Part shown: piece by piece, positions 2,985 through 16,696 of the stretch
Layout: each line of letters opens with the position of its first letter
Position numbering within the stretch: the first letter of the stretch is position 1
Source: an uncultured virus (IMG/VR IMGVR_UViG_3300027227_000002)
Lineage: Duplodnaviria; Heunggongvirae; Uroviricota; Caudoviricetes; Crassvirales
Virus record (IMG/VR): IMGVR_UViG_3300027227_000002
Strand: one strand, 5' to 3'
Length of the DNA: 64,000 nucleotides
Translations under genes and position numbers: made by a program
The notes under the pieces: generated by a model
The model's input: the letters and a program-made list of their open reading frames with translations, nothing else
Told to the model about the DNA's origin: nothing
Database searches by the model: none

Positions 2985-3308
2985 TTAGTTCATATATGCT
3001 TTTCCGCTGGTTGCTCCGTTAAAACGGATCTCCAAAGTGTTAATGCTCAGGTATTGGACTTCAGTATAAATGACATTATTACCAGAGTCAATAACCATCA
3101 CCGATGGGTATTTATTTAAATTATGTTCTACAGTCCACGTTTCAGAGTTTTCGTTCTGTGCGTGCACATAGTGTGCGTCTGATGCTCCGCCAATTACCCC
3201 CGTTACGGATACATTGACAGAAGGCTGAGATATAGTAGCTGTTTGGACTTGAGTTTGTACTCCGCCAATCGTGATGCTATCACCTGAATTAACTTCGATA
3301 TTACTCAC
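2985..3308 (-). CDS. Small tail-associated hypothetical protein
   Basis: 107-aa ORF with W.V.HNLNKYPSV.V.D motif, between structural genes. Confidence 0.6.
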   Translation of the reverse strand: MSNIEVNSGDSITIGGVQTQVQTATISQPSVNVSVTGVIGGASDAHYVHAQNENSETWTVEHNLNKYPSVMVIDSGNNVIYTEVQYLSINTLEIRFNGATSGKAYMN

Positions 3309-3663
3309 TTACGTCCTCATTAACCTTAAACAACCCATACACCCACGTCTTGACAACTCCTACGCTGTTAGACTGTAAATCATATACATAAAGACCTCCG
3401 GGGACACCAGACATCGTAGTTGCGCTTGCTGTAATAGTAAGCTTACCTCCTGCTGTCCCAGTGTAGGAAAAGTCAGCATCTCCAATAATGTCACCAGAAG
3501 ATGTGTCTGTTTCTTTGACATCCATCTTCCAAGTATATCCAGATGACAAATCAATAGCCGCTCCAGCATTATCAGTAAAGGTCAGCTCAAGAGTAAAAGT
3601 ATCACCGCGTCTGCATGTGATATCTACCCTTGTTGATGCGTCTAAATTTATACTTGTCGCCAT
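3301..3663 (-). CDS. Tail or baseplate-associated beta-sandwich protein
   Basis: 120 aa with RGDTF...G.YVYDLQ pattern common upstream of fibre genes. Confidence 0.55.
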   Translation of the reverse strand: MATSINLDASTRVDITCRRGDTFTLELTFTDNAGAAIDLSSGYTWKMDVKETDTSSGDIIGDADFSYTGTAGGKLTITASATTMSGVPGGLYVYDLQSNSVGVVKTWVYGLFKVNEDVSE

Positions 3664-3680: not shown

Positions 3681-6113
3681 TCATTGATTGCCAAGAATTT
3701 GCGAGAGAACATCTACGTCCTCAGCCAGTTCTCCACGACTGCCCTGACGTTGTGATATTAACTTGCTTTGCTCCACGGCTTGTTTCTTAACTCTGTCGTC
3801 CTTAGCTCGCTCTCGGCTTCCCTCGACTTCGCGTTGAAAACCATACTGCTTTTCTAAATTCATCTCTCTGGATTGACCCTGTAATTTCTCGAGCTCCATC
3901 TTCAACTGATATTCTAGTTGTAGCAGTTGGGCTTTTGCCTGTGATTCCAGTTGGATTTTCTGAGCTGCCAGTTGAGCCATTGCTTGTTGCTTTTGCATCT
4001 CCAGCTGGGCGGTAACCTGTGCCGTCTGCTGGTTGGCTTGAGCCTGCATCTGAGAGTTCTGTGCAGCAAGATCTTGGCGCTGTTTGATTCTCTTCTTACG
4101 GCGAACTATCAGCAGCTGCTCAGCTTGATCCACATCGTGAAGTCTACGGATCGCCATAGCGTCCTCAAGATCCAGCTCTCCCTGAGCTAGAGACTGTTGA
4201 ATATTTTGCTCCAGATACATCTTGTCCTCTTCGTTCATTCCGGTTACCACGCGAACCCCAAAATTGAAGAGCGGTAGGTTGTTGAATGAAGAAAGAACGG
4301 ACATGTTGGTCTCACCAACAGCCTTCTCGTAGACGCGATATAATACGCTTTGCTTGGGAAGGATCTGTAAACACTTGACGATGTCATCACACACGCGGCG
4401 ATAAAGAACCTGCGATGCGTGAGTAATGTCATAAATAGCGTTATTAGACGCTTGGATTGCCTGCTGGCGAACGCCTACCAGAGCCTCGCTCTTGGGTGTT
4501 GACCCATCAACCACCTCGTTGAGACCCGTAGTGTCACGGATCATATTTAGGTATTGATTGTACAGACCAATAAGCTCTTGAATGTTTCTGATTTGGTTTC
4601 CGATCTCGCGAACTGGGGGATTCTGAAATCCTCCCTCTGGGTTCTTGGATCTGTAATAGAAGACACCCGTCTGTTCGTAGATGTCCTGAATTTCCAGTGG
4701 CTGAAGCTCTCCACCTCGTCCAAGCTGTACGTTCTCCAGACCCTCAATGTCAATGATCAATCCATCAGGCTTAGCTTTAGCAATAGACTGCTGAAGCTTG
4801 AGGTGAGCCAGTTGCATCATGTCCGCATATTGGGTGATGCTGGAGACCATGCTCTTGGGCATCATTCTGCGGATGTTTGTAGCCACGACCGAGTAGCTCA
4901 TTCGAGTTCTCGTGATGTCATGGATGTTTCTAGGGAGGTTCTTCTTTAAGCCGTAATCAAAAAGGTATTTTGTTCCGACCACATACTTTCCGCCGTAGAC
5001 GGTTGCATGTTCCATCTTGCGAGACTTGCGCTCGTAAACAGATCCAGAAGGAGGGGTAAACTCTTCGTGACCTTTGTAGTAGAACCCTGTATTTCCAAAT
5101 CTGGACTGCTTTTCCTCAAAGTACAGGCAGTCAACAGACATAAACTCAAAGTCTAGAACCTCGACCACATACTCGTCATATCCGAAGACCGTCTTTTGGA
5201 GGGTCTTGTCGTAATAGCTGGTATTATACTTAGTGGGGTCGTTGGTGTATCTTGTCTGTACCTGACGAGCCATCTCTTCATATTGCTCTTCCTCGAACTG
5301 ACCGCGAGTGATACGCTTGAGCTCTTCGATTGTCATGCGCTGGATGTGGCCAGCGTACTTGAGGTCTGACATTGTAGGGTCTTCCGTCTGTGAGTGCACG
5401 AAGTATTCTGGGTCAACGTACTTGGTTGCGATGCCATAGTTGGGATCATTATCCCGCTTCACTACAGCCATTCCCAAAGTAACGAGATCCTCTACGGCTC
5501 TACGGTAGATCTTATCGTTAAAGTCGTTCCATTCAAGGGTCAGATTTGTTGCAATCTGTGCGGCAATCTCGGACGCTACCTTGATGTTGGTCTCCAAGAA
5601 GATCTCTGCCTCCTCGGGGCTTTCGGGTAGCTCTTCAATGGCAATGCCGGGATCAAGCCCAGCACCGCGAAGGGATTCAAAGAATTCTCTGTTCTCTACA
5701 CCCGCCTTGACGGTAGCTTTTTTCTTCTCTTTCTCTGTTAAGGAAAGGGGGTCTACTGCTTCAAGATTTGGGTATGGTTTTCTAGAGAGGATTTTGTTTA
5801 CTACGATCTTAACGAACTTAGGAATAATTGGAACTGGAGACCAGTCAATATTCAAAAGAGTTCCATCTCCATTGTTAGGATCGAGTGAGTTAAGTACTTG
5901 CTTGTACTTAGAAGTATCTTGTGTTCCGTTGGCATAGTCCCTGTTCGTATTGAATTCCTTCATTCTACGGTTATACAGGGAACTAGATTCATTCGCAGAC
6001 CCCCATTGTGCCATAATGGACTTAGCGTACTTCAAGCCGTAACCTTTGGACGACTTCTCCATGAAGCTTGCTAACGGATCTGGAAAGTTTCCGTAGTTCT
6101 TTGTGCTTGACAT
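3681..6113 (-). CDS. Portal protein (segment A)
   Basis: 810 aa, directly downstream of the terminase, Q-rich coiled-coil C-terminus, colinear homolog of 54501-56936. Confidence 0.85.
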   Translation of the reverse strand: MSSTKNYGNFPDPLASFMEKSSKGYGLKYAKSIMAQWGSANESSSLYNRRMKEFNTNRDYANGTQDTSKYKQVLNSLDPNNGDGTLLNIDWSPVPIIPKFVKIVVNKILSRKPYPNLEAVDPLSLTEKEKKKATVKAGVENREFFESLRGAGLDPGIAIEELPESPEEAEIFLETNIKVASEIAAQIATNLTLEWNDFNDKIYRRAVEDLVTLGMAVVKRDNDPNYGIATKYVDPEYFVHSQTEDPTMSDLKYAGHIQRMTIEELKRITRGQFEEEQYEEMARQVQTRYTNDPTKYNTSYYDKTLQKTVFGYDEYVVEVLDFEFMSVDCLYFEEKQSRFGNTGFYYKGHEEFTPPSGSVYERKSRKMEHATVYGGKYVVGTKYLFDYGLKKNLPRNIHDITRTRMSYSVVATNIRRMMPKSMVSSITQYADMMQLAHLKLQQSIAKAKPDGLIIDIEGLENVQLGRGGELQPLEIQDIYEQTGVFYYRSKNPEGGFQNPPVREIGNQIRNIQELIGLYNQYLNMIRDTTGLNEVVDGSTPKSEALVGVRQQAIQASNNAIYDITHASQVLYRRVCDDIVKCLQILPKQSVLYRVYEKAVGETNMSVLSSFNNLPLFNFGVRVVTGMNEEDKMYLEQNIQQSLAQGELDLEDAMAIRRLHDVDQAEQLLIVRRKKRIKQRQDLAAQNSQMQAQANQQTAQVTAQLEMQKQQAMAQLAAQKIQLESQAKAQLLQLEYQLKMELEKLQGQSREMNLEKQYGFQREVEGSRERAKDDRVKKQAVEQSKLISQRQGSRGELAEDVDVLSQILGNQ

Positions 6114-6176: not shown

Positions 6177-8303
6177 TTACCACCCTGTGTGCTTATACCT
6201 GCGGAAGAAGACCTTATTAGACAAATCTTGCTTTTTAACTTCCTTCGTTATTTTTTGTGCCGCCAGAAGCGCAAGACCAGAAGAGATGGTCATATCGAAC
6301 TTTGTTCGATCGTCGATATTATACCCAATCCAGTCTTCTAGCGTTCTGTTAAAATACATCCGACCGAAATTTCCAGTCTTTATATTCATCCCCACGTGCT
6401 CGTGAACATATGCCTCAATTGCCTGAGCGTGAGACTGGATGACATCTTTACTGTTCGATGGAATACCCTTTGTCTTTACGTTTGTAGAAGATCCCGGGGG
6501 CGTGAGGTGTTCGGGTCTATCCATGACATACCCATCGTATCCTCTTGACTCAAAGTATCTTACGATTCCGTATTTGTTGTTTTCTATTAGCAACGGATAC
6601 CCATAGAATACTGCTGCCATAAGAATGTCCTCATAGAATATACGCGCCAGTGGGGGACGCTCGGCGTACTCCGCTACAAACATATTCGACGGGAAGTTCA
6701 TGTTGAATTTATTAAAAAAATGACAAGCCCCTTTTGATCCAGAACCAGTTGTTGTTTTGTCGATATCGTAGCTATCCACGCCGCCTACGCCGTACATTTC
6801 GTTGCCCGGATGAACCTTTCCATAGCGTGTTTCCCGCTTGTTTCTAAACTCTTCCGGTGGCATCCATGACACGCGCCACTTCCCATTGGGATCTGGAGAC
6901 CAGATCACTCTAGAGTCCGCCAATCCACCCTCCCAAACGAAGTTGCCACGAACCACTGGGCTGGGGTATATCTCGTCATTGTGCTGGATTTGCTCATATA
7001 TCTTGGCGATATTGAAATGAGATGCCTTGGTAGAGTCCCGAAAAGCCTCATCTTCGGAGAACGGGAACTGTCGAATAACTTCATTGAGCTCATAGGGGTC
7101 GGCTAGCAGTGCTTTTCTCTCATTTTGGAGGTATGTTTTTGCTCCATAGTGAATTAGCTCTCCCTCGAGACCGTCTACGGCAAACTCGGGGTCTTCAATT
7201 ACTGGAAGTCCGTGTTTATCGAAAAACCCCTCCAAAGCTTCGTATGCTGGGATGAATATCTTGTATAAACCGCTTTTTGTACGCCCGTTATTGTTCCTTT
7301 CTTGTGGATCTGATGAGTAATATAGCTTTTTAAACTCTGCGCCACCCCGGTCTAGGGGGTTGACAGTTGATCCGACTAGGGCTTTTCCGATAACTTTCCG
7401 ACCAACGATCAAACAAGTGCGGTGAATACGCCAAACGTCCTGAATATCCAGTGGTCTTTCCCATTTTCCAGCCTCGTCAAGGTACAGCATGTGGAGTTTT
7501 TCCCCGTCATAGGCGTTGGTAGTGGTGTTTTTCCAGTTAATTAGAGTGTCTAGCGCCTCTCCCTTGTTGGAGGTTTTGTTTTTTTTGGTGATTCGCTTGG
7601 ATGGCTCTCTAAAAGCGAGCTCCATACGCGGATTTGTCGTACCGTCTTGGATGGGTTTAAAGAAAAACGGGTAAGATTTAAATACCGGGACGACTTTTTT
7701 CATGAAGATGTTCTCCTGAGCGTCTTTACCCGTCTTTGACATGATACCCAGAAGCTTGTCTTTCACCTGTGTGCCCTCATCTACCTCAATACAGGCGCTC
7801 ATGTTGGTATATCCCGAGCGTCTACACTTGGTGTAGATCTGCCCGAGGCATCGGGGATCGGCTTCGCAGGCAGCGAAGTGAATGAAAAGCTTCCTCTGGA
7901 AGTCAAGAAATGACGGATATCCAATATCTATCTTGCTCCACTGGAGCATCATATAATGTCGTCCGGTAATATACGTAGGAACACCTTTATTGAAAAACCA
8001 AACCCCTTCACGCCGACGTTTAAACTCTTTCTCGATATATGAAACATATTTTTGACGGAATTCTCTAGGGCTTTCTGCCCACTCATCCATTGAGCGAATA
8101 GAATCAAGTTCTTTCGGCATAGGTGTTCTTTGCCAGTGTTGATCAGATTCTTCTTTCCCGTTAAATAGTATCTCAGAATCTTCGGGTAATTCGGGTAATT
8201 GAATAAATACGCCGGAGATTTCGATGCTCTCACCTTGAGTACCATTGGGGCAAATGTTGACCACTTCCTCTTCATAGTCCTTATGTTTTATAAGTCCTGC
8301 CAT
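6177..8303 (-). CDS. terL: Terminase large subunit (segment A)
   Basis: 708 aa. Walker A-like KCRRSGYT, Walker B LYLDEAGKW, coupling motif GST, nuclease motifs GGVDSYD, IENN and FDMTISSGLA. Confidence 0.9.
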   Translation of the reverse strand: MAGLIKHKDYEEEVVNICPNGTQGESIEISGVFIQLPELPEDSEILFNGKEESDQHWQRTPMPKELDSIRSMDEWAESPREFRQKYVSYIEKEFKRRREGVWFFNKGVPTYITGRHYMMLQWSKIDIGYPSFLDFQRKLFIHFAACEADPRCLGQIYTKCRRSGYTNMSACIEVDEGTQVKDKLLGIMSKTGKDAQENIFMKKVVPVFKSYPFFFKPIQDGTTNPRMELAFREPSKRITKKNKTSNKGEALDTLINWKNTTTNAYDGEKLHMLYLDEAGKWERPLDIQDVWRIHRTCLIVGRKVIGKALVGSTVNPLDRGGAEFKKLYYSSDPQERNNNGRTKSGLYKIFIPAYEALEGFFDKHGLPVIEDPEFAVDGLEGELIHYGAKTYLQNERKALLADPYELNEVIRQFPFSEDEAFRDSTKASHFNIAKIYEQIQHNDEIYPSPVVRGNFVWEGGLADSRVIWSPDPNGKWRVSWMPPEEFRNKRETRYGKVHPGNEMYGVGGVDSYDIDKTTTGSGSKGACHFFNKFNMNFPSNMFVAEYAERPPLARIFYEDILMAAVFYGYPLLIENNKYGIVRYFESRGYDGYVMDRPEHLTPPGSSTNVKTKGIPSNSKDVIQSHAQAIEAYVHEHVGMNIKTGNFGRMYFNRTLEDWIGYNIDDRTKFDMTISSGLALLAAQKITKEVKKQDLSNKVFFRRYKHTGW

Positions 8304-10728: not shown

Positions 10729-11029
10729 CTATAGAAAGGTCGCAACAGACTAGAGCAACCTTATCCCAAAACGAAGCGGGGAGGGGTAACCCAAAACCCC
10801 CTCCCCCCAACTTCACACAAAGACCTTGAATTAGCCCTAACTGTATTCAATCCCGAACGGGATTTTATATACTGCTATTATATCTGCTACAGGGATCTAC
10901 AAGACTTAAAGCTTTACTTTAACTATTTGAGTTTATGTTTTTAGTTTTGAGTTATATAGGTTTGGGGGATTATAGTATAATAACCACGCCCGCTCGCGCG
11001 ACCCGAACCGAATCTCCAAACCCAACCCC

Positions 11030-11448
11030 CTGACAATCAGCACTTTAGGTTCAAACATTTTACCTTTTTGTTTAACGCATTCCTGCTATCTTACTGATAC
11101 ACAGCGACTTATCGTGGTTGCGTTCAAGTATACCTCTAACTTACGAGCCGTAACTAACTGAAACACAATGACTTCGATCAAGTTAGTTAAACCTTTAGTT
11201 GAGGTGGTATCAAACGACACAATCTGAAGCGATGTCGGAGTCCCTGACGGAACGAAATCAATCCCCCCTCCAGCCCTCCCTACCTCCCACAATCCACCAC
11301 AACTCACCACTAGACTCACGCACTAGTTGTTTTACTGGAGAGCGCTATTTTCCTTCTTGCTTTAAATGTACCCGCGCGTAAGGGAATGTGTCATATGATA
11401 CTATGCAAACTTTTTTTGAAATTTTTCTCGTTGATTATCAATGAGTTA
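11030..11448 (+). repeat. Four copies of an 18-bp motif YTGA-N4-CA-N5-TT
   Basis: CTGACAATCAGCACTTTA (11030), CTGATACACAGCGACTTA (11094), CTGAAACACAATGACTTC (11158), TTGATTATCAATGAGTTA (11431). Confidence 0.5.
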
Positions 11449-11490
11449 GGAAATAAATGCACTTTTTTCTTGCAAATATGTCAACCATAG

Positions 11491-11522
11491 TTTGCTCATG
11501 TGAGAAATGCTTTGTAGTATTG
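11491..11522 (+). promoter_or_regulatory. Putative early-operon promoter (TTTG-N20-TAGTATTG)
   Basis: -33 TTTG plus a -7 box with one mismatch to TAnnTTTG, at correct spacing. Predicted transcription start near 11527. Confidence 0.6.
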
Positions 11523-11529
11523 CAGTGTC

Positions 11530-11563
11530 GTTCGGCTGTTGTTCCGAACACGTTCTTTGAAAT
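11530..11563 (+). promoter_or_regulatory. Hairpin plus boxA-like antitermination element
   Basis: GTTCGG/CCGAAC hairpin followed by GTTCTTTGAAAT (11552-11563), resembling the rrn boxA consensus. Confidence 0.5.
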
Positions 11564-11739
11564 GTTGGTCAGCCCCCCCGCGAAACCCCGCTCCCTTGTG
11601 CGGTCGGTGAAAGCCCGAGTACCGAGATGAAGTGAGTCATTCTAGCAAGTAGGATGCCGCCCCCGAAGTTGACCAACCCGTGAAATTCTGCCCTCGCCAC
11701 GAGTTGGTGAGACCATTCAAGGAATGATGAAAGGCAGAG
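11564..11739 (+). ncRNA. Structured leader RNA of unknown class with two multi-stem domains
   Basis: GTTGGTCAGC/GTTGACCAAC encloses three hairpins. TTCTGCC/GGCAGAG encloses CTCGCCA/TGGTGAG and CATTC/GAATG. No credible ORF. Confidence 0.55.
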
Positions 11740-11750
11740 CCACCCCGCAA

Positions 11751-11882
11751 GGTTAACTGACGATGGATTGAAGCGGAACAAGGTGGTCGTTAAGGGGTAA
11801 GTATGAGGACTCCCTACATTAACATATAATCCGAAACCAAAAACCAATCTGCCCCTCTTCGGAGGGGCGGGTGGTCTTAACC
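11751..11882 (+). ncRNA. Type I hammerhead ribozyme HH1 with enlarged stem II
   Basis: GGTTAA-CTGACGA-(T)-GGATT..58 nt..AATCC-GAAA-CCA..hairpin..TGG-TC-TTAACC. Predicted cut after C11876. One extra U follows A9. Confidence 0.75.
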
Positions 11883-11900
11883 ACAAAAACCTCCTTGAAC

Positions 11901-12206
11901 ATGGAATACTTGATTGACCCCTCTACCTTGAAGTTCATTGCTGAAACCATCAACGGCTACAGCGAAATGGTAGCATCCAAAGAAATAGACTCAAATGAGT
12001 TGACTGAACTCGCCACTGAAATTGCTGAAGAGTGGACTCTAGATTGGGATGAGAACCAAGGCTTTGGTTCATCCGATAGCACCTACATGGTGAAAGAGTT
12101 TGTTGATTCAGTAATCAACATCCACTTCTACAAGCAGTACGAAACGACCTTCGCTCCCGTGATAACCACAACGAAGCACCATCGACTACGAGTTGTAAAG
12201 TGCTAA
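11901..12206 (+). CDS. Acidic early hypothetical protein
   Basis: Start moved to ATG 11901 (MEYLIDP) because the upstream GTG lies inside the ribozyme. Confidence 0.7.
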   Translation: MEYLIDPSTLKFIAETINGYSEMVASKEIDSNELTELATEIAEEWTLDWDENQGFGSSDSTYMVKEFVDSVINIHFYKQYETTFAPVITTTKHHRLRVVKC

Positions 12207-12240
12207 CCAACGACCCCCGAAAGGGGGTTTGGTCTTAACC
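12206..12240 (+). other. Core-less hammerhead substrate-like element O1
   Basis: ACCCCC-GAAA-GGGGGT hairpin then TTGGTCTTAACC, with no CTGAnGA core immediately upstream. Confidence 0.6.
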
Positions 12241-12255
12241 AAAAACTATAGAGAT

Positions 12256-13164
12256 ATGAAAGCAGATGTTGCGCAGAAAGTCAAGATGACTTTGTTGGAA
12301 GGGTTAAAGAAAGATGGTTTGAACTGGTTCAAGCCATGGAAGGGTGGTCTAGCCAACAACCCAATCAACAACTCCAATGGTCGTGCCTACCGAGGCATGA
12401 ATATTTTCATCCTCAACGCCGAGATGCGTTTCAAGGGATACACCTCAAATGAGTGGCTAACCTTCAAGCAGTGCGCCGAGAAGAAAGGCTCGGTCAAGAA
12501 GGGTGAGAAGGCTACTGATGTGTTCTTTTGGAACATCGGATTTATAGCAAACGGAAAGTTCTACAAGAGTGAGCAAGATGCCCTCAACGCTGGACACGAT
12601 AAGAAGGATATCACCAAGACCTTCTCGCTCCGTTTTTACAAGGTGTTCAACATTGATCAATGTGAGAATATCAGCCCTCGCCGAGTGGCGGAGGAGATTG
12701 CAGATGTTGACCCGATTGAATCTGCCGAGGCTATCGTGAAGGGCTACAAGACCGCCCCCAAGATTACCAACTCTACCGAGGACTCTGCATACTATGCTCC
12801 GATGAAAGACCTCGTCCACATGCCCTTGATTGGGATGTTCAAGTCGGCAGACGACTACTACAAGACCTTGTTCCACGAGTTGGTTCATAGCACGGGTCAC
12901 GAGAGCCGTTTGAGCCGCAAGGGGGTAATGAACACCAACCTATTCAGCAAGACCAAAGGTGACTATGCCTTTGAAGAGTTGATTGCCGAAAGCGGTGCGA
13001 TGATGTTGTCGGGGATTGCAAACCTCAATCCATGTGATAGCGACACCAATAGCCAAGCCTACATCAACGGGTGGGTTAAAGCCGTAGAAGACGCAAAAGA
13101 GAGCGCGGTGGTTAGCGCTCTAGTTCAGTCCACTAAAGCCGTGGATTACATCTTGGGAGAATAA
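12256..13164 (+). CDS. ardC: ArdC-like anti-restriction and ssDNA-binding protein with zincin metallopeptidase domain
   Basis: WFKPW, GRAYRGMN, WLTFKQ, VKKGEK, VFNIDQ, FHELVHSTGH..RL.R and YAFEELIAE. Start at ATG 12256. Confidence 0.9.
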   Translation: MKADVAQKVKMTLLEGLKKDGLNWFKPWKGGLANNPINNSNGRAYRGMNIFILNAEMRFKGYTSNEWLTFKQCAEKKGSVKKGEKATDVFFWNIGFIANGKFYKSEQDALNAGHDKKDITKTFSLRFYKVFNIDQCENISPRRVAEEIADVDPIESAEAIVKGYKTAPKITNSTEDSAYYAPMKDLVHMPLIGMFKSADDYYKTLFHELVHSTGHESRLSRKGVMNTNLFSKTKGDYAFEELIAESGAMMLSGIANLNPCDSDTNSQAYINGWVKAVEDAKESAVVSALVQSTKAVDYILGE

Positions 13165-13172
13165 GCCCGAGA

Positions 13173-13202
13173 GCCACCCCCCACGGGGGGTAGGTCTTAA
13201 CC
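13173..13202 (+). other. Core-less hammerhead substrate-like element O2
   Basis: ACCCCC-CACG-GGGGGT hairpin then AGGTCTTAACC. Confidence 0.6.
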
Positions 13203-13217
13203 AATAAACTGAAAAAG

Positions 13218-13496
13218 ATGAACAACTACAAAGAACTGACCGACCTACTGGAAGAAAAAGGAATGTGGAACTATGGTTGGGCAAAGCCCGGTCAAATCTT
13301 CATCAACCAAGGTCGCCGCTTGGCGGCTATTGTGTGCGATGATTCGACTGGCTACAACGTAGCCTACAAGATGCCTAACGGACGCATATACGCAAAGAAT
13401 GTTAATGCTCAAAAGGCGATTGAAATCCTACACATCGCAATGTCCTTAAAGTTGGACGGCGATACAGGTGAAGTTGAAGGTGGCTTCGGCTTCTAA
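13218..13496 (+). CDS. Early hypothetical protein
   Basis: 92-aa ORF with an A-rich leader. Confidence 0.7.
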   Translation: MNNYKELTDLLEEKGMWNYGWAKPGQIFINQGRRLAAIVCDDSTGYNVAYKMPNGRIYAKNVNAQKAIEILHIAMSLKLDGDTGEVEGGFGF

Positions 13497-13540
13497 TTAC
13501 AACCCCTAAAGAATTATTTGTTGAATAAAAAAAAATTGAC

Positions 13541-14095
13541 ATGGCTATTATCGCAACCGGAAACGAATACAAACTTCAGTTAGGTACAATTCAAGAACTC
13601 GATGCCGTCATTAAGATGGTCATCAAAGGAATTCCTGACGGATTCTTTGACTTCCAATCGAAAGGAAATCAATTCGCCACACTTGACCTGAGAGCCGACC
13701 TATCATGTGACGACCAACCTCCAGTGTTCTTGGATATGTTCTACAACGGGCTAATCACGAACTACTTCCGAAACTACGACATAGAGTTGGTCACGATGCA
13801 GTCGGATTACGAGAAGGCAAGTAAGAAGTTGAATGCGGTCAACCCACATGCCTGTTGGGAGGATGTCTTGCTACAGGTATTATCTGACGGAAATCTCGTC
13901 TTCGAAGACCACTACCAAGGGATGACGATTGAACTCGACTTAAGTAAGGTGGGAAGCAACTTCCTGAATGCCTTCAACGATGCACCTGATTACTTTATGG
14001 AACTTGTACTACTTCACGCCAACGGAGGGTCGGACGGAATCACCTACGACTCTTGGCTTCAAATGGGGACATACGGAGAAGTAATCTACGGATAG
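13541..14095 (+). CDS. Early hypothetical protein
   Basis: 184 aa, ending D..LQ.G.YGEVIYG, a motif typical of phage early proteins. Confidence 0.75.
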   Translation: MAIIATGNEYKLQLGTIQELDAVIKMVIKGIPDGFFDFQSKGNQFATLDLRADLSCDDQPPVFLDMFYNGLITNYFRNYDIELVTMQSDYEKASKKLNAVNPHACWEDVLLQVLSDGNLVFEDHYQGMTIELDLSKVGSNFLNAFNDAPDYFMELVLLHANGGSDGITYDSWLQMGTYGEVIYG

Positions 14096-14146
14096 GTTAA
14101 CTGACGAGTCCTAAATGGACGAAACCTGCTTCGGCAGGTCTTAACC
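14095..14146 (+). ncRNA. Type I hammerhead ribozyme HH2
   Basis: GGTTAA-CTGACGA-GTCC-TAAAT-GGAC-GAAA-CCTGC-TTCG-GCAGG-TC-TTAACC. Perfect core and three perfect stems. GUC cut after C14140. Confidence 0.95.
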
Positions 14147-14161
14147 AACAAAATAATCACG

Positions 14162-14461
14162 ATGAAAAACATCACAAACGAATCCGTTCAAGCGTTTATG
14201 AATGCTGTTCCCTTCAAGAAATCCAATATGCGGGTTGAAGTTTTAGAGAACGTCACGATTCTGCGTCTACACGGAAATGTTATTGCGTACCGCTACAATG
14301 ACCCTGAACGTACTTTGTCCATCACGAACTGCGGATGGTTCAGCAAAACGACAAAGGAGCGTCTGAATGGAATCCCGAGCGTATCAATCAAGCAGAAAAA
14401 CTTCAATTGGTACTTGAATGGTACTGAATGGAATGGTGATTTAATTGACATTAAAGGTTAA
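14162..14461 (+). CDS. Early hypothetical protein flanked by hammerheads
   Basis: 99 aa with LHGN.IA...GW.S.TTKERLN motif. Its stop codon forms part of HH3 stem I. Confidence 0.8.
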   Translation: MKNITNESVQAFMNAVPFKKSNMRVEVLENVTILRLHGNVIAYRYNDPERTLSITNCGWFSKTTKERLNGIPSVSIKQKNFNWYLNGTEWNGDLIDIKG

Positions 14462-14512
14462 CTGACGAGGATTCAATATCCGAAATGCCGACTACACATC
14501 GGCATCTTAACC
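14456..14512 (+). ncRNA. Type I hammerhead ribozyme HH3
   Basis: GGTTAA-CTGACGA-GGAT-TCAAT-ATCC-GAAA-TGCCGA-CTACACA-TCGGCA-TC-TTAACC. AUC cut after C14506. Confidence 0.95.
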
Positions 14513-14530
14513 AACTAAATCAACAATACT

Positions 14531-14761
14531 ATGAAAACAATTGATGACTACAAAAAGATGCCGAAAAGCGCACTTGCGGAGAAATGGTTTTGGCTACATA
14601 ACATTCCGACCACATTCCTTGGAGAGGTTGTTTGGTTAGATTTTGGGAATTTTGAAATCGAAGTAGCGGAATCGGATGTTGAGTATAGAGCGAATGAATT
14701 CCTTCGCCTATTAGAAAATGACTTGATAAAACAGCCATTCAAGGGAATTTTATTGGATTAA
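14531..14761 (+). CDS. Early hypothetical protein flanked by hammerheads
   Basis: 76-aa ORF between HH3 and HH4. Confidence 0.7.
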   Translation: MKTIDDYKKMPKSALAEKWFWLHNIPTTFLGEVVWLDFGNFEIEVAESDVEYRANEFLRLLENDLIKQPFKGILLD

Positions 14762-14766
14762 ATTTA

Positions 14767-14823
14767 GGCATACTGATGAGGGCTGAATGCCCGAAACACG
14801 GACTACACATCCGTGTCTATGTC
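14767..14823 (+). ncRNA. Type I hammerhead ribozyme HH4
   Basis: GGCATA-CTGATGA-GGGC-TGAAT-GCCC-GAAA-CACGGA-CTACACA-TCCGTG-TC-TATGTC. GUC cut after C14817. All stems covary relative to HH2 and HH3. Confidence 0.95.
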
Positions 14824-14850
14824 AAATTTTAACCAACGCAAACAATTACA

Positions 14851-15249
14851 ATGAAAACCACGACTGAAGTTGAATGCATGAATGATTGGTGCGACTTTAC
14901 CCACGAGAAGGGGTACTGCACTTGTGATAATGAATCTTTAAATGAGAAGACGATGAAGAAATCAAATGAATTTGTGGCTACTTGCCCCGCACTTGTTTGG
15001 TCAGCAGAAGATGTTGACCTCAACATTGACCGACTCTATGAGTCAGAGGTTATTGACCATGTGAGTGCAAACAAACTAAAGGAGATATCTAATGAAGACA
15101 AACTTCTTTGGTTAGAGCAGATACTTGAGGATTGTCACGATGAGTTTTGTCAGATTATCAATGAGCGAATCGGAGATGCTATCTACGACTACTATCGCAG
15201 TACGCCTATGGGTAAGGAAGAAGTTGGTTACATTAAATACAATAAGTAA
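14851..15249 (+). CDS. Acidic early hypothetical protein
   Basis: 132-aa ORF. The start could be a downstream ATG. Confidence 0.65.
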   Translation: MKTTTEVECMNDWCDFTHEKGYCTCDNESLNEKTMKKSNEFVATCPALVWSAEDVDLNIDRLYESEVIDHVSANKLKEISNEDKLLWLEQILEDCHDEFCQIINERIGDAIYDYYRSTPMGKEEVGYIKYNK

Positions 15250-15534
15250 ATGGAAGCGTATCTTAAATTCTTGAACGACCCCAACCCGCCAACACATTTG
15301 GCGGAGGATGAGTTGTGGGAGTACTATGGTGGAGATTGCTATGGCGACATCTCTTACTATGCCTTCTTACTATGTAGGTTTGGCGAAGCATCTAATTGGA
15401 CTACGGCTATGATTATGGCTGACAAGTGGTCGGATTGGGATAGGCAAAACAAAACCCTTACTGAAGGAATGAGTGGTTACGACTCGTTACTGCATTGGTT
15501 GAATGTTGAATATGTTGGACTTTATTATAAGTAA
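15250..15534 (+). CDS. Hypothetical protein, duplicate copy 1
   Basis: 94 aa, nearly identical to 15780-16070. Confidence 0.75.
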   Translation: MEAYLKFLNDPNPPTHLAEDELWEYYGGDCYGDISYYAFLLCRFGEASNWTTAMIMADKWSDWDRQNKTLTEGMSGYDSLLHWLNVEYVGLYYK

Positions 15535-15580
15535 GATGACGACCTTATTTAAAAACGAGGAGTAAAACAAAAACTACAAT

Positions 15581-15778
15581 ATGATACTCTTTGAATATCA
15601 CGAATCAGACGATGACGATGCATCTATCTACGGCTTGACCTTCGAGGAGGTCAACGATTGGATACAAGACCACAACGAGTACTACGAAACCAACTACCAA
15701 ACTATTCAGGAGTTTAATGATGGTGAGGCGTACCGGGAGTTTATTGTAAGTGAAATGGAAAACGCAAATCTAAATTAA
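15581..15778 (+). CDS. Very acidic small hypothetical protein
   Basis: 65 aa, D/E-rich, A-rich leader. Confidence 0.7.
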   Translation: MILFEYHESDDDDASIYGLTFEEVNDWIQDHNEYYETNYQTIQEFNDGEAYREFIVSEMENANLN

Positions 15779-15779
15779 A

Positions 15780-16070
15780 ATGGAAATGGAAACATATCTT
15801 AAATTCTTGAATGACCCCAACCCTCCAACGCATTTGGCGGAGGATGAGTTGTGGGAGCACTATGGTGGAGATTGCTATGGCGATATCTCTTACTATGCCT
15901 TCTTACTATGTAGGTTCGGCGAAGCATCCAATTGGACTACGGCTATGATTATGGCTGACAAGTGGTCGGATTGGGATAGGCAAAACAAAATCCTTACTGA
16001 AGGAATGAGTGGTTACGACTCGTTACTGCATTGGTTGAATGTTGAATATGTTGGACTTTATTATAAGTAA
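15780..16070 (+). CDS. Hypothetical protein, duplicate copy 2
   Basis: 96 aa, 10 substitutions versus copy 1 over 285 nt (manual count). Confidence 0.75.
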   Translation: MEMETYLKFLNDPNPPTHLAEDELWEHYGGDCYGDISYYAFLLCRFGEASNWTTAMIMADKWSDWDRQNKILTEGMSGYDSLLHWLNVEYVGLYYK

Positions 16071-16071
16071 G

Positions 16072-16335
16072 ATGAAAGAGCTAGATAGAGCAATAGAAGA
16101 TTTAGGTGGTGAAATTTTCATCATGTATTCAGGCGAAAGAGACCCTGAAAAGTACATCAATGAGTGGGGCTATGCCGGGATGGAAACCCCTCACCAATCT
16201 TATAGTAGTGGATTCCAATGCAAAGGAGTTCAGTTGCGAATTGACCTAGGCGGTAAGAGTCACATGATTGAACTACCGCCCCAACTAGAGAGAGACCTCA
16301 TGGATGCCGTGGAGTCCATTCTAGATGAAGAATAA
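16072..16335 (+). CDS. Hypothetical protein
   Basis: Start moved to MKELDRA, directly after the upstream stop. Confidence 0.65.
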   Translation: MKELDRAIEDLGGEIFIMYSGERDPEKYINEWGYAGMETPHQSYSSGFQCKGVQLRIDLGGKSHMIELPPQLERDLMDAVESILDEE

Positions 16336-16336
16336 A

Positions 16337-16366
16337 GAAAGGGGGCAACCCCTTTCGGTCTTAACC
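16337..16366 (+). other. Core-less hammerhead substrate-like element O3
   Basis: GAAAGGGG-GCAA-CCCCTTTC hairpin then GGTCTTAACC. Confidence 0.6.
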
Positions 16367-16383
16367 ATAATTTCACAATCATC

Positions 16384-16548
16384 ATGACGAAATCCAATAA
16401 GTCAGTAGAGACTATAACCTACAGCATGTTCATCCTCCGCTCTTATGCGGAAACGACCTACAACTCCTTCGTTTTATATCACCTAAAAAAGATGGAGAGT
16501 GCAATGGCTAAACTAGAAGTTGAACTCAACACCGAGAGCCATGAGTAA
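16384..16548 (+). CDS. Small hypothetical protein (54 aa)
   Basis: Manual translation MTKSNKSVETITYSMFILRS...TESHE, following O3. Confidence 0.55.
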   Translation: MTKSNKSVETITYSMFILRSYAETTYNSFVLYHLKKMESAMAKLEVELNTESHE

Positions 16549-16696
16549 GTACATAACCTTCAATGCCGACACGCTGATGTGGGAGGTTAGAGAAGATAAC
16601 CAGACAATTGCTTCCTCTGGAGACAAGCGAAGCGTAGAACTTTACTTTCAATATTTACAAGAGAGAGATGGAAAAAGCAGTATTGACATACCTTAA
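16541..16696 (+). CDS. Small hypothetical protein (51 aa)
   Basis: Manual translation MSKYITFNADTLMWEVRED..., filling the gap in the operon. Confidence 0.45.
   Translation: MSKYITFNADTLMWEVREDNQTIASSGDKRSVELYFQYLQERDGKSSIDIP

Follow-up and report, generated by a model that had tools for sequence, protein, structure and literature searches.

The window analysed here, a stretch of 64,000 nucleotides (nt) from an uncultured virus of the Crassvirales (IMG/VR IMGVR_UViG_3300027227_000002), holds between 11.7 and 16.4 kb on its plus strand a run of small genes separated by short structured junctions. Complete type I hammerhead ribozymes occupy four of these junctions (HH1, HH2, HH3 and HH4), and three others (O1, O2 and O3) each carry a GC hairpin followed by the 10-nt motif GGTCTTAACC. 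The exact motif occurs five times in the window, always on the plus strand (11873, 12231, 13193, 14137 and 16357): twice within complete hammerheads (HH1 and HH2) and three times core-less (O1, O2 and O3), the chance expectation for an exact 10-mer being ~0.1 in 128 kb by our own arithmetic. TCTTAACC is found six times on the plus strand and once on the minus strand. All five GGTCTTAACC sites lie 21–24 nt ahead of a start codon, and they are complementary to the arms of the hammerhead core, with 6 base pairs (bp) between UUAACC and GGUUAA and 3 bp between GGU and ACC, the latter reaching 6 bp for O1 with HH1. The core-less modules are arranged as follows.

12206–12240, plus strand: O1 module; local ACCAA at 12206–12210, hairpin 12213–12228, UUGGU 12229–12233, putative cut after C12234, UUAACC 12235–12240, ATG at 12256
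13173–13202, plus strand: O2 module; hairpin 13176–13191, GGU 13193–13195, putative cut after C13196, UUAACC 13197–13202, ATG at 13218
16337–16366, plus strand: O3 module; hairpin 16337–16356, GGU 16357–16359 unpaired, putative cut after C16360, UUAACC 16361–16366, ATG at 16384

Upstream of O1, O2 and O3 there is no CUGAnGA with a stem I strand, and the three sites are thus without an adjacent catalytic core of their own. Of the 18 copies of CTGAnGA on the plus strand of the window, four are parts of hammerheads (11757, 14101, 14462 and 14773). The stretches that separate a hammerhead from the orphan site after it contain just one further copy (12025), which lies inside an open reading frame (ORF) and has no matching stem I strand. 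A sequence-only reading of this DNA had already described three orphan sites lacking a core, and our exact-motif and CTGAnGA scans confirm both their positions and that absence. The same reading was correct on the distances from cut to ATG (21, 21 and 23 nt for O1–O3; 24, 21 and 24 nt for HH1–HH3) and on the arms (ACCAAA at 11836–11841, TTTGGT at 12228–12233, ACC at 11843–11845, and ACCTGC versus GTAGGT). We detected no intrinsic terminator (GC hairpin plus U tract) on the plus strand at O1–O3, and the Rfam 15 covariance models reported no family there at E values up to 10.

Complete hammerheads of the window

HH1–HH4 each consist of a CUGAnGA...GAAA core between three helices with stem I open, and all four contain an NUH triplet with an A15.1–U16.1 pair, the triplet being GUC in HH1, HH2 and HH4 and AUC in HH3. 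Their coordinates, together with those of the leader preceding HH1, are given below.

11527–11750, plus strand: non-coding leader RNA ahead of HH1, with no credible ORF
Near 11553, plus strand: candidate promoter box GTTCTTTGA, within the HH1 leader
11751–11882, plus strand: HH1, type I hammerhead with a large stem II domain, assigned by pattern and consensus fold
11751–11764: HH1 stem I 5′ strand (11751–11756), CUGACGA (11757–11763) and an extra U (11764)
11765–11836: HH1 stem II, GGAUU (11765–11769) with AAUCC (11828–11832), and GAAA (11833–11836)
11836–11869: HH1 arm ACC (11836–11838), second ACC (11843–11845) and hairpin (11850–11869)
11873–11882: HH1 site, GGU (11873–11875), C17 (11876) and UUAACC (11877–11882)
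14095–14146, plus strand: HH2, minimal self-contained type I hammerhead, predicted cut after C14140
14456–14512, plus strand: HH3, minimal type I hammerhead, site CAUC, predicted cut after C14506
14767–14823, plus strand: HH4, minimal type I hammerhead, predicted cut after C14817

HH4, whose stem I is GGCAUA/UAUGUC, is absent from the list in the sequence-only reading; downstream of it lie TTAACCAAC at 14829 and UUAACCAAC at 14829–14837. The minimum-energy folds of HH2, HH3 and HH4 are the hammerhead itself, with closed and stable stem III hairpins, that of HH2 being capped by UUCG. Covariance models scored these RNAs modestly: Rfam Hammerhead_1 (RF00163) matched HH2 at 30.2 bits (E 2e-4), under its gathering score of 34, and RAGATH-1 matched HH4 and HH2 at 20.2 bits, compared to a gathering score of 56.3, while HH1 and HH3 went unreported by the Rfam search at E up to 10. 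HH2–HH4 are self-contained hammerheads of the ordinary kind, and the orphan sites can be explained without them. HH1 possesses a stem II domain of ~65 nt, and its leader contains the blocks CGTTCTTTGA and CCACGAG, conserved with the relative G002 described below; the region upstream is conserved among relatives.

Syntenic relatives with one core and many core-less modules

Relatives were found by searching viral and metagenome contigs with protein A2, a conserved protein encoded just downstream of the variable region. In G002 (record L292) the flanking proteins are 43–85% identical to those of the window, and inside the variable region no protein is common to the two. Six distinct syntenic relatives possess a single CUGAnGA preceded by GGUUAA, the HH1 homologue, at the head of the variable region, and downstream of this core each contains 11–19 core-less modules with a common layout: a hairpin, GGU-H, UUAA(C/U)C and an A-rich leader. 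The counts below are of GU-H/UUAAYC sites in the array region and include the site of the core itself.

L292 (G002): one GGUUAA core, 16 sites
L407: one GGUUAA core, 12 sites
L408: one GGUUAA core, 13 sites
L422: one GGUUAA core, 16 sites
L423: one GGUUAA core, 20 sites
L427: one GGUUAA core, 16 sites

A further record, L424, is truncated on the left and contains 14 sites. In L292 a module occupies the gap right before 14 of the 16 gene starts of the array region, and no Rfam family matches the array. The array-rich relatives contain no minimal hammerheads at all; in the record of L408 (45.7 kb, estimated to be 76% complete) pattern matches to any other minimal hammerhead stay at the control level. 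Additional relatives possess neither core nor array. These comparisons support the view that the core-less GGUH/UUAACC modules are a conserved, selected feature, always downstream of one HH1-type core with matching arms.

In L407 and L408 the last module of the array precedes a tRNA-like RNA and not a gene. This RNA (L407:7522–7625; L408:7503–7605) has a 7-bp acceptor stem and a GGTTCAAATCC T-loop; ARAGORN called no tRNA in it. Behind the first gene after the core, L292 contains a strong terminator-like hairpin with a U8 tract (10914–10945), and if this terminator is efficient the rest of the array would lie on other transcripts.

Sequence rules at the core-less sites

A scan of the array regions for NN-T-N-TTAA-N-C yielded 134 matches, comprising 118 of the form GGU[C/A/U]UUAA[C/U]C, four with AGUC, one with UGUC and about ten that are unrelated; in none is position 17 a G. 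When the 123 sites were grouped by the sequence preceding them, 57 clusters resulted, in which position 17 is C 31 times, U 20 times, A 17 times and never G, and at least 11 changes at this position have taken place within clusters. Counted over 107 distinct modules, position 17 is C in 53, U in 27, A in 27 and G in none, compared to a G share of 19–47% at the six positions upstream and of 22% across the region. Hammerheads are described as excluding G at position 17, where it would pair with C3 (PMC1636495).

The two bases before the U follow a stricter rule: they are GG in 102 of the 107 distinct modules, whereas the self-contained GGUUAA hammerheads known from other phages have GG in only 34 of 159 distinct sequences. 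Self-contained hammerheads vary freely before the U, together with their own 5′ strand, and this difference indicates that the core-less sites are held to the sole sequence that fits the ACC of their only core. In stem I the sole variant is UUAAUC (7/107), which retains a G–U pair. For 98 of the 107 distinct modules there is no CUGAnGA core with a stem I strand within 170 nt.

A second system with other arms

Among the relatives of the ArdC-like protein, L147 and L148 each carry one hammerhead of a second, unrelated system with different arms: stem I strand GUAAUA, CUGACGA, GAAACGU and an own site ACGUC/UAUUAC, the stem II of the L148 core having a 33-nt loop. Behind the core of L148 lie seven core-less modules, each a hairpin followed by ACGUC/UAUUA(C/U), and a motif scan revealed the same one-core layout in L445 (eight core-less modules) and L446 (six). 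The core of L446 reads GUAAUG, which still forms a G–U pair, and there is a compensatory change in its stem II. In both arm systems, then, the sites match the single core of their own genome, a correspondence that fits a function and also fits descent of the modules from the 3′ half of the core. The arms are invariant within each system, and the two systems differ as wholes.

On its minus strand L148 also gave weak Rfam matches to FopS and GibS (3266–3339, 458–532 and 838–906), which hint at a Bacteroidota host.

Core anatomy and predicted folds

A consensus fold of seven HH1-type homologues recovered stems I, II and III, with two compensatory changes in stem II, and the core letters are invariant in all seven. 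In the predicted minimum-energy folds, the 5′ cleavage product leaves its 3′ end unpaired with the GAA-adjacent arm in nine of ten cores, among which L407 pairs only A15.4 with that arm, L408 being the exception. In seven of the ten cores the pairing partner of the 3′ end is another arm copy (ACC, or GACG in the second system). The sequence-only reading had suggested that HH1 parks its own cleaved 3′ end on its second ACC, and the predicted fold of the HH1 5′ product has this pairing. With respect to the modules, the hairpin ends right at GGU in 34 of 107 and takes in GGU in 69.

A near-identical phage and RNA contigs

Phage L041 is 99.8–100% identical to the window outside one swapped cassette (window 14149–15565; L041:3054–3662). 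It carries O1–O3 and two more orphan sites, and holds an O3-like copy with UUAAUC. The left breakpoint of the swap lies inside HH2, all five mismatches of the left block being located in loop II and stem III of this hammerhead, and the right breakpoint is found immediately 3′ to an orphan leader. Stem III of HH2 is CCUGC/GCAGG in the window and CCCCC/GGGGG in L041, with the arm ACCTGC becoming ACCCCC. The sequence-only reading had proposed that the HH2 arm pairs with O2; this pairing fails, because L041 changes the arm while O2 stays identical, and the closed, stable stem III of HH2 speaks against it as well.

RNA data were available as contigs from 11 runs (share ≤0.20), of which X1, X2, X4 and X5 were compared (depth 0–14, no read ends). 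At the junction 13497–13540 there is no ribozyme in the window, and contigs of runs X1 and X5 show loose ends at 13528. Related RNA contigs carry at this junction a hammerhead 3′ half, GAAACGCC..GGCGUA/UUAACC, and the presence of a hammerhead at this junction therefore varies between strains.

Neighbouring genes and wider occurrence of the motif

Pfam names two of the 11 ORFs scanned in the region, an ArdC-like gene (12256–13164) and a Kyano_Gp96-like gene (14162–14461). An ORF of 94–96 amino acids is present twice (15250–15534 and 15780–16070), the copies being ~530 nt apart; L041:3881–4172, collinear with the second copy, matches the first (window 15248–15539) at 96.6% identity. A blastn search in distant mode with 11400–16600 gave no match in the phage GenBank collection. 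The motif CACAATCATCA recurs beside junction hairpins or start codons (window 16375–16383; L292 at ~15020; L410 at ~3520 and ~5770). An 18-nt motif, GGTAAGTATRAGGACTCC, lies inside the HH1 stem II domain (11791–11808) and recurs in L292; in L399, L400 and L402 (~6001) it is part of another non-coding RNA, which precedes an ordinary hammerhead and a tRNA-like end, and a variant of the motif stands upstream of the L410 core.

Complete GGUUAA/UUAACC hammerheads are present in at least 126 IMG/VR stretches; core-less copies are rare among those matches listed, and some of them look decayed (e.g. L055:2894). An exact-arm scan with CCGAAACCAAAAACC hit 106 stretches, only three of them with hammerheads (the twins of the window and G002), and a scan with GGTCTTAACCAAAA hit 119, mostly chance matches in coding sequence, and led to G002. 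The genome-contig scan with CAAGGTTAACTGAYGA returned 121 stretches, in which two hammerheads were judged real (L514 and L517) and no arrays were seen. At 5 of 36 loci of ArdC relatives (L129, L132, L133, L140 and L156), bona fide type III hammerheads are likewise predicted to cut right after a GC hairpin. These have a very short stem III (CUGU/ACAG) and flank the ArdC-like gene, at junctions orthologous to O1 and O2. In L131, conserved multi-hairpin junction RNAs that end in UAACCAAAG..GCCUUAUGA (3930–4030 and 4690–4780) match no Rfam family. An analogy to integron attC sites was rejected: the motif does not fit RYYYAAC/GTTRRRY, and a second, inverted core site is absent.

Proposed mechanism

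From the anatomy and conservation of the modules, the one-core architecture and the site rules, we infer pairing with HH1, cleavage at the orphan sites, and action of the core in trans or in cis. O1–O3 would be copies of a junction module that corresponds to the substrate half of HH1, i.e. the stem III 3′ strand, the triplet and the stem I 3′ strand, and the modules would be served by the single HH1-type core heading the early variable region. Contact with this core could be made by pairing over a distance within a single transcript, or in trans after HH1 has released itself. Its GGUUAA would pair with UUAACC (6 bp) and the ACC after GAA with GGU (3 bp), the short ACC/GGU helix stacking on the hairpin of the module. 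A cut after position 17 would then leave an upstream mRNA ending in hairpin-GGUH with a cyclic phosphate, and a downstream mRNA beginning with a 5′-OH UUAACC leader ~21 nt ahead of the next start codon.

Comparative sequence evidence suggests one ribozyme cutting many sites. In the best-supported reading, whose chances we regard as evenly balanced, O1–O3 are substrate modules dependent on an HH1-type core, whether in long-range cis or in trans. A more far-reaching version is put forward tentatively, as possible and on balance unlikely: that in nature the ~350-nt HH1-type RNA works in trans as a hammerhead endoribonuclease with multiple turnover. Self-freed and with its 3′ end parked on the second arm copy, it would mature all of the early operon, together with one or more tRNA-like RNAs, by cutting up to 19 hairpin-GGUH/UUAACC tags, an RNase P-like job that would have arisen at least twice with different arms. 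The idea in the sequence-only reading that a few cores serve many junctions is sustained in part, by the arrays with a single arm-matching HH1 core, the site rules and the second system, and is to be given up as regards the HH2–O2 pairing.

Several observations weigh against a dependence of the modules on HH1. L410 carries an HH1-type core with changed arms and no array. The one candidate that fits the altered L410 arm (AAUA/UUAACC at 8249) was left uncounted, being a lone site in a promoter-like gap with no hairpin. Copying of the core's own 3′ half would yield the arm match with no pairing function, and the hairpins of the second system look like recent copies. The leader is G-poor (G in only 0–5 of the 107 modules from +8 to +15), such that G avoidance at position 17 is not decisive alone and its strength depends on the null model, even if position 17 is set apart from the leader by its high C share. 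Conserved leaders occur at every gene of L018, L020 and L030 with no ribozyme, and L130 and L131 keep UAACCAAAG without GU-H.

Structural considerations point the same way. GGU is at least partly paired locally in 69 of the 107 modules, and in 42 a local ACC pairs with GGU and closes the helix, for which reason the module resembles a hammerhead cut off just before A15.1. Forced pairing of the HH1 5′ product with O1, O2 and O3 gave −1.8, +0.1 and −4.3 kcal/mol; energies this small imply weak binding unless it is helped by stacking, tertiary contacts, low temperature or cis tethering. The cores themselves deviate from the canonical form: HH1 has one extra U after A9, and cores of the G002 clade have a two-hairpin insertion of 25–26 nt between A9 and stem II and no Rfam hammerhead match at E up to 10. 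For the first of these deviations there is a precedent in the viroid hammerhead CChMVd (+), which contains an extra A10 between A9 and G10.1, at the same place as U11764, and is reported to suffer only a moderate loss of rate (PMC1636495); this RNA belongs to a viroid and acts in cis, and it has no bearing on the 25–26 nt insertion. Finally, RNA contigs run across O1 (12124–12274) and across the HH2 cut site (13905–14211). Because the HH2 cut site is spanned as well as O1, the contigs decide nothing on cleavage of the orphans.

Alternative explanations

The strongest alternative, which we judge somewhat unlikely yet serious, holds that the modules are uncut hammerhead 3′ halves that came to the cassette junctions by copying or stayed there as remnants, and that are retained in another role, the hairpin protecting or ending the upstream mRNA and the UUAACC–A-rich leader serving translation or as a recombination handle. 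The breakpoints of the swap between the window and L041, inside HH2 and just 3′ of an orphan leader, are in line with such an origin, and the decayed hammerheads of other phages such as L055:2894, the many modules that start (U)AA-ACC like the GAA-ACC of the core, the ribozyme-free leaders of L018, L020 and L030, and the general scarcity of G in the leader all agree with it. It leaves unexplained why GG-U is fixed (102/107) in modules with wholly diverged hairpins, when self-contained hammerheads vary there, and why position 17 is C in 50%, U in 25%, A in 25% and never G, unlike the A/U-rich leader. Nor does it account for the retention of exactly one core, the 5′-most, in 6 + 3 records, and the module ahead of the tRNA-like RNA is a further difficulty.

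Recognition of the hairpin and GGUHUUAACC by a phage or host endoribonuclease or RNA-binding factor, with the hammerhead likeness reflecting origin only, appears improbable. T4 RegB is a phage sequence-specific RNase that cuts early mRNA leaders, and a strongly conserved 10-nt single-stranded motif beside a hairpin, coupled with weak predicted RNA–RNA binding, could be read in favour of such a protein. No candidate protein was found, with the ArdC-like and Kyano_Gp96-like products the only ones named by Pfam among the 11 ORFs scanned. The variants tolerated (C, U or A at H, and U in place of C at position 1.5) are the ones that pairing with a hammerhead core would predict, and the same motif lies within complete hammerheads in the at least 126 viral stretches mentioned above.

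That several cores, including minimal HH2, serve the orphans by site-specific stem III pairing is very improbable. ACCUGC of HH2 and GUAGGU of O2 are able to form six pairs, but in L041 the arm is ACCCCC with a compensatory GGGGG while O2 is identical; the UUCG-capped stem III hairpin of HH2 is stable; array-rich relatives do without any minimal hammerhead; and chance should, as we estimate, supply three extra pairs in ~0.3–0.6 of the 6–12 arm–site combinations that are possible.

Least credible of all is that the modules are genes for minus-strand antisense small RNAs of the FopS/GibS kind, starting in the next ORF and ending at the hairpin: the terminator scan does read the same hairpins as minus-strand terminator-like at HH1, O2 and O3, but the weak minus-strand Rfam matches to FopS (31.9 bits, E 0.06) and GibS (30 bits) come from L148 only and fall far under the gathering scores (56 and 115, respectively), and the hammerhead arm match would go unexplained. 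FopS is described as having at its 5′ end a seed that can pair with the translation start regions of Bacteroides (PMC11697453), which by itself accounts for the likeness, and the L148 matches probably stem from complementarity to A/U-rich translation start regions.

Comparison with known systems

Small self-cleaving ribozymes are treated as single-use and cis-acting. Engineered trans-cleaving hammerheads, which are artificial, bind their substrates on either side of an NUH triplet through short arms that form stems I and III. Compared to these, the natural arms in the phages are very short (6 + 3 bp), and a hairpin contributed by the substrate would lengthen stem III through stacking.

Clustered hammerheads that flank single genes in prophages and phages have been proposed to process transcripts to single-gene mRNAs (Perreault et al. 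2011, PMC3088659). The type I hammerheads of the window likewise lie at the junctions of a polycistronic phage region, and HH2–HH4 are of this kind. As presented in that report the clusters have a core at every site, whereas most junctions here hold just the substrate half, behind one core (three GGUC sites in the window and 11–19 in each relative). A second parallel is the discontinuous hammerhead in the 3′ untranslated regions of mammalian CLEC2 genes (Martick et al. 2008, as described in PMC6765202), in which enzyme and substrate strands are far apart on one transcript, as they would be in the proposed mechanism. In that description the enzyme strand and the substrate strand are each present once; in the phages a single enzyme would act on many sites, including its own adjacent one. 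Trans-cleaving genomic ribozymes are portrayed as still being sought (PMC6765202), and in the limited collection of literature searched we found no description of core-less hammerhead sites or of a phage design with one core and many sites.

The arrays make the question of trans action testable at the bench, as they provide one core RNA, dozens of natural substrate tags, the negative rule at G17 and a second system with different arms. If the mechanism is true, phage hammerheads would have a concrete job, and the arrays would offer a highly compact natural blueprint for programmable RNA cleavage. Before half-sites of hammerheads in phage genomes are annotated as decay, a shared core should be looked for.

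RNase P RNA differs in fold and in chemistry, catalysing hydrolysis to a 5′ phosphate, and works with a protein subunit. The likeness, should the proposed dependence on HH1 hold, would lie in the organization: a single RNA enzyme whose many substrates are alike in shape and carry a common short tag.

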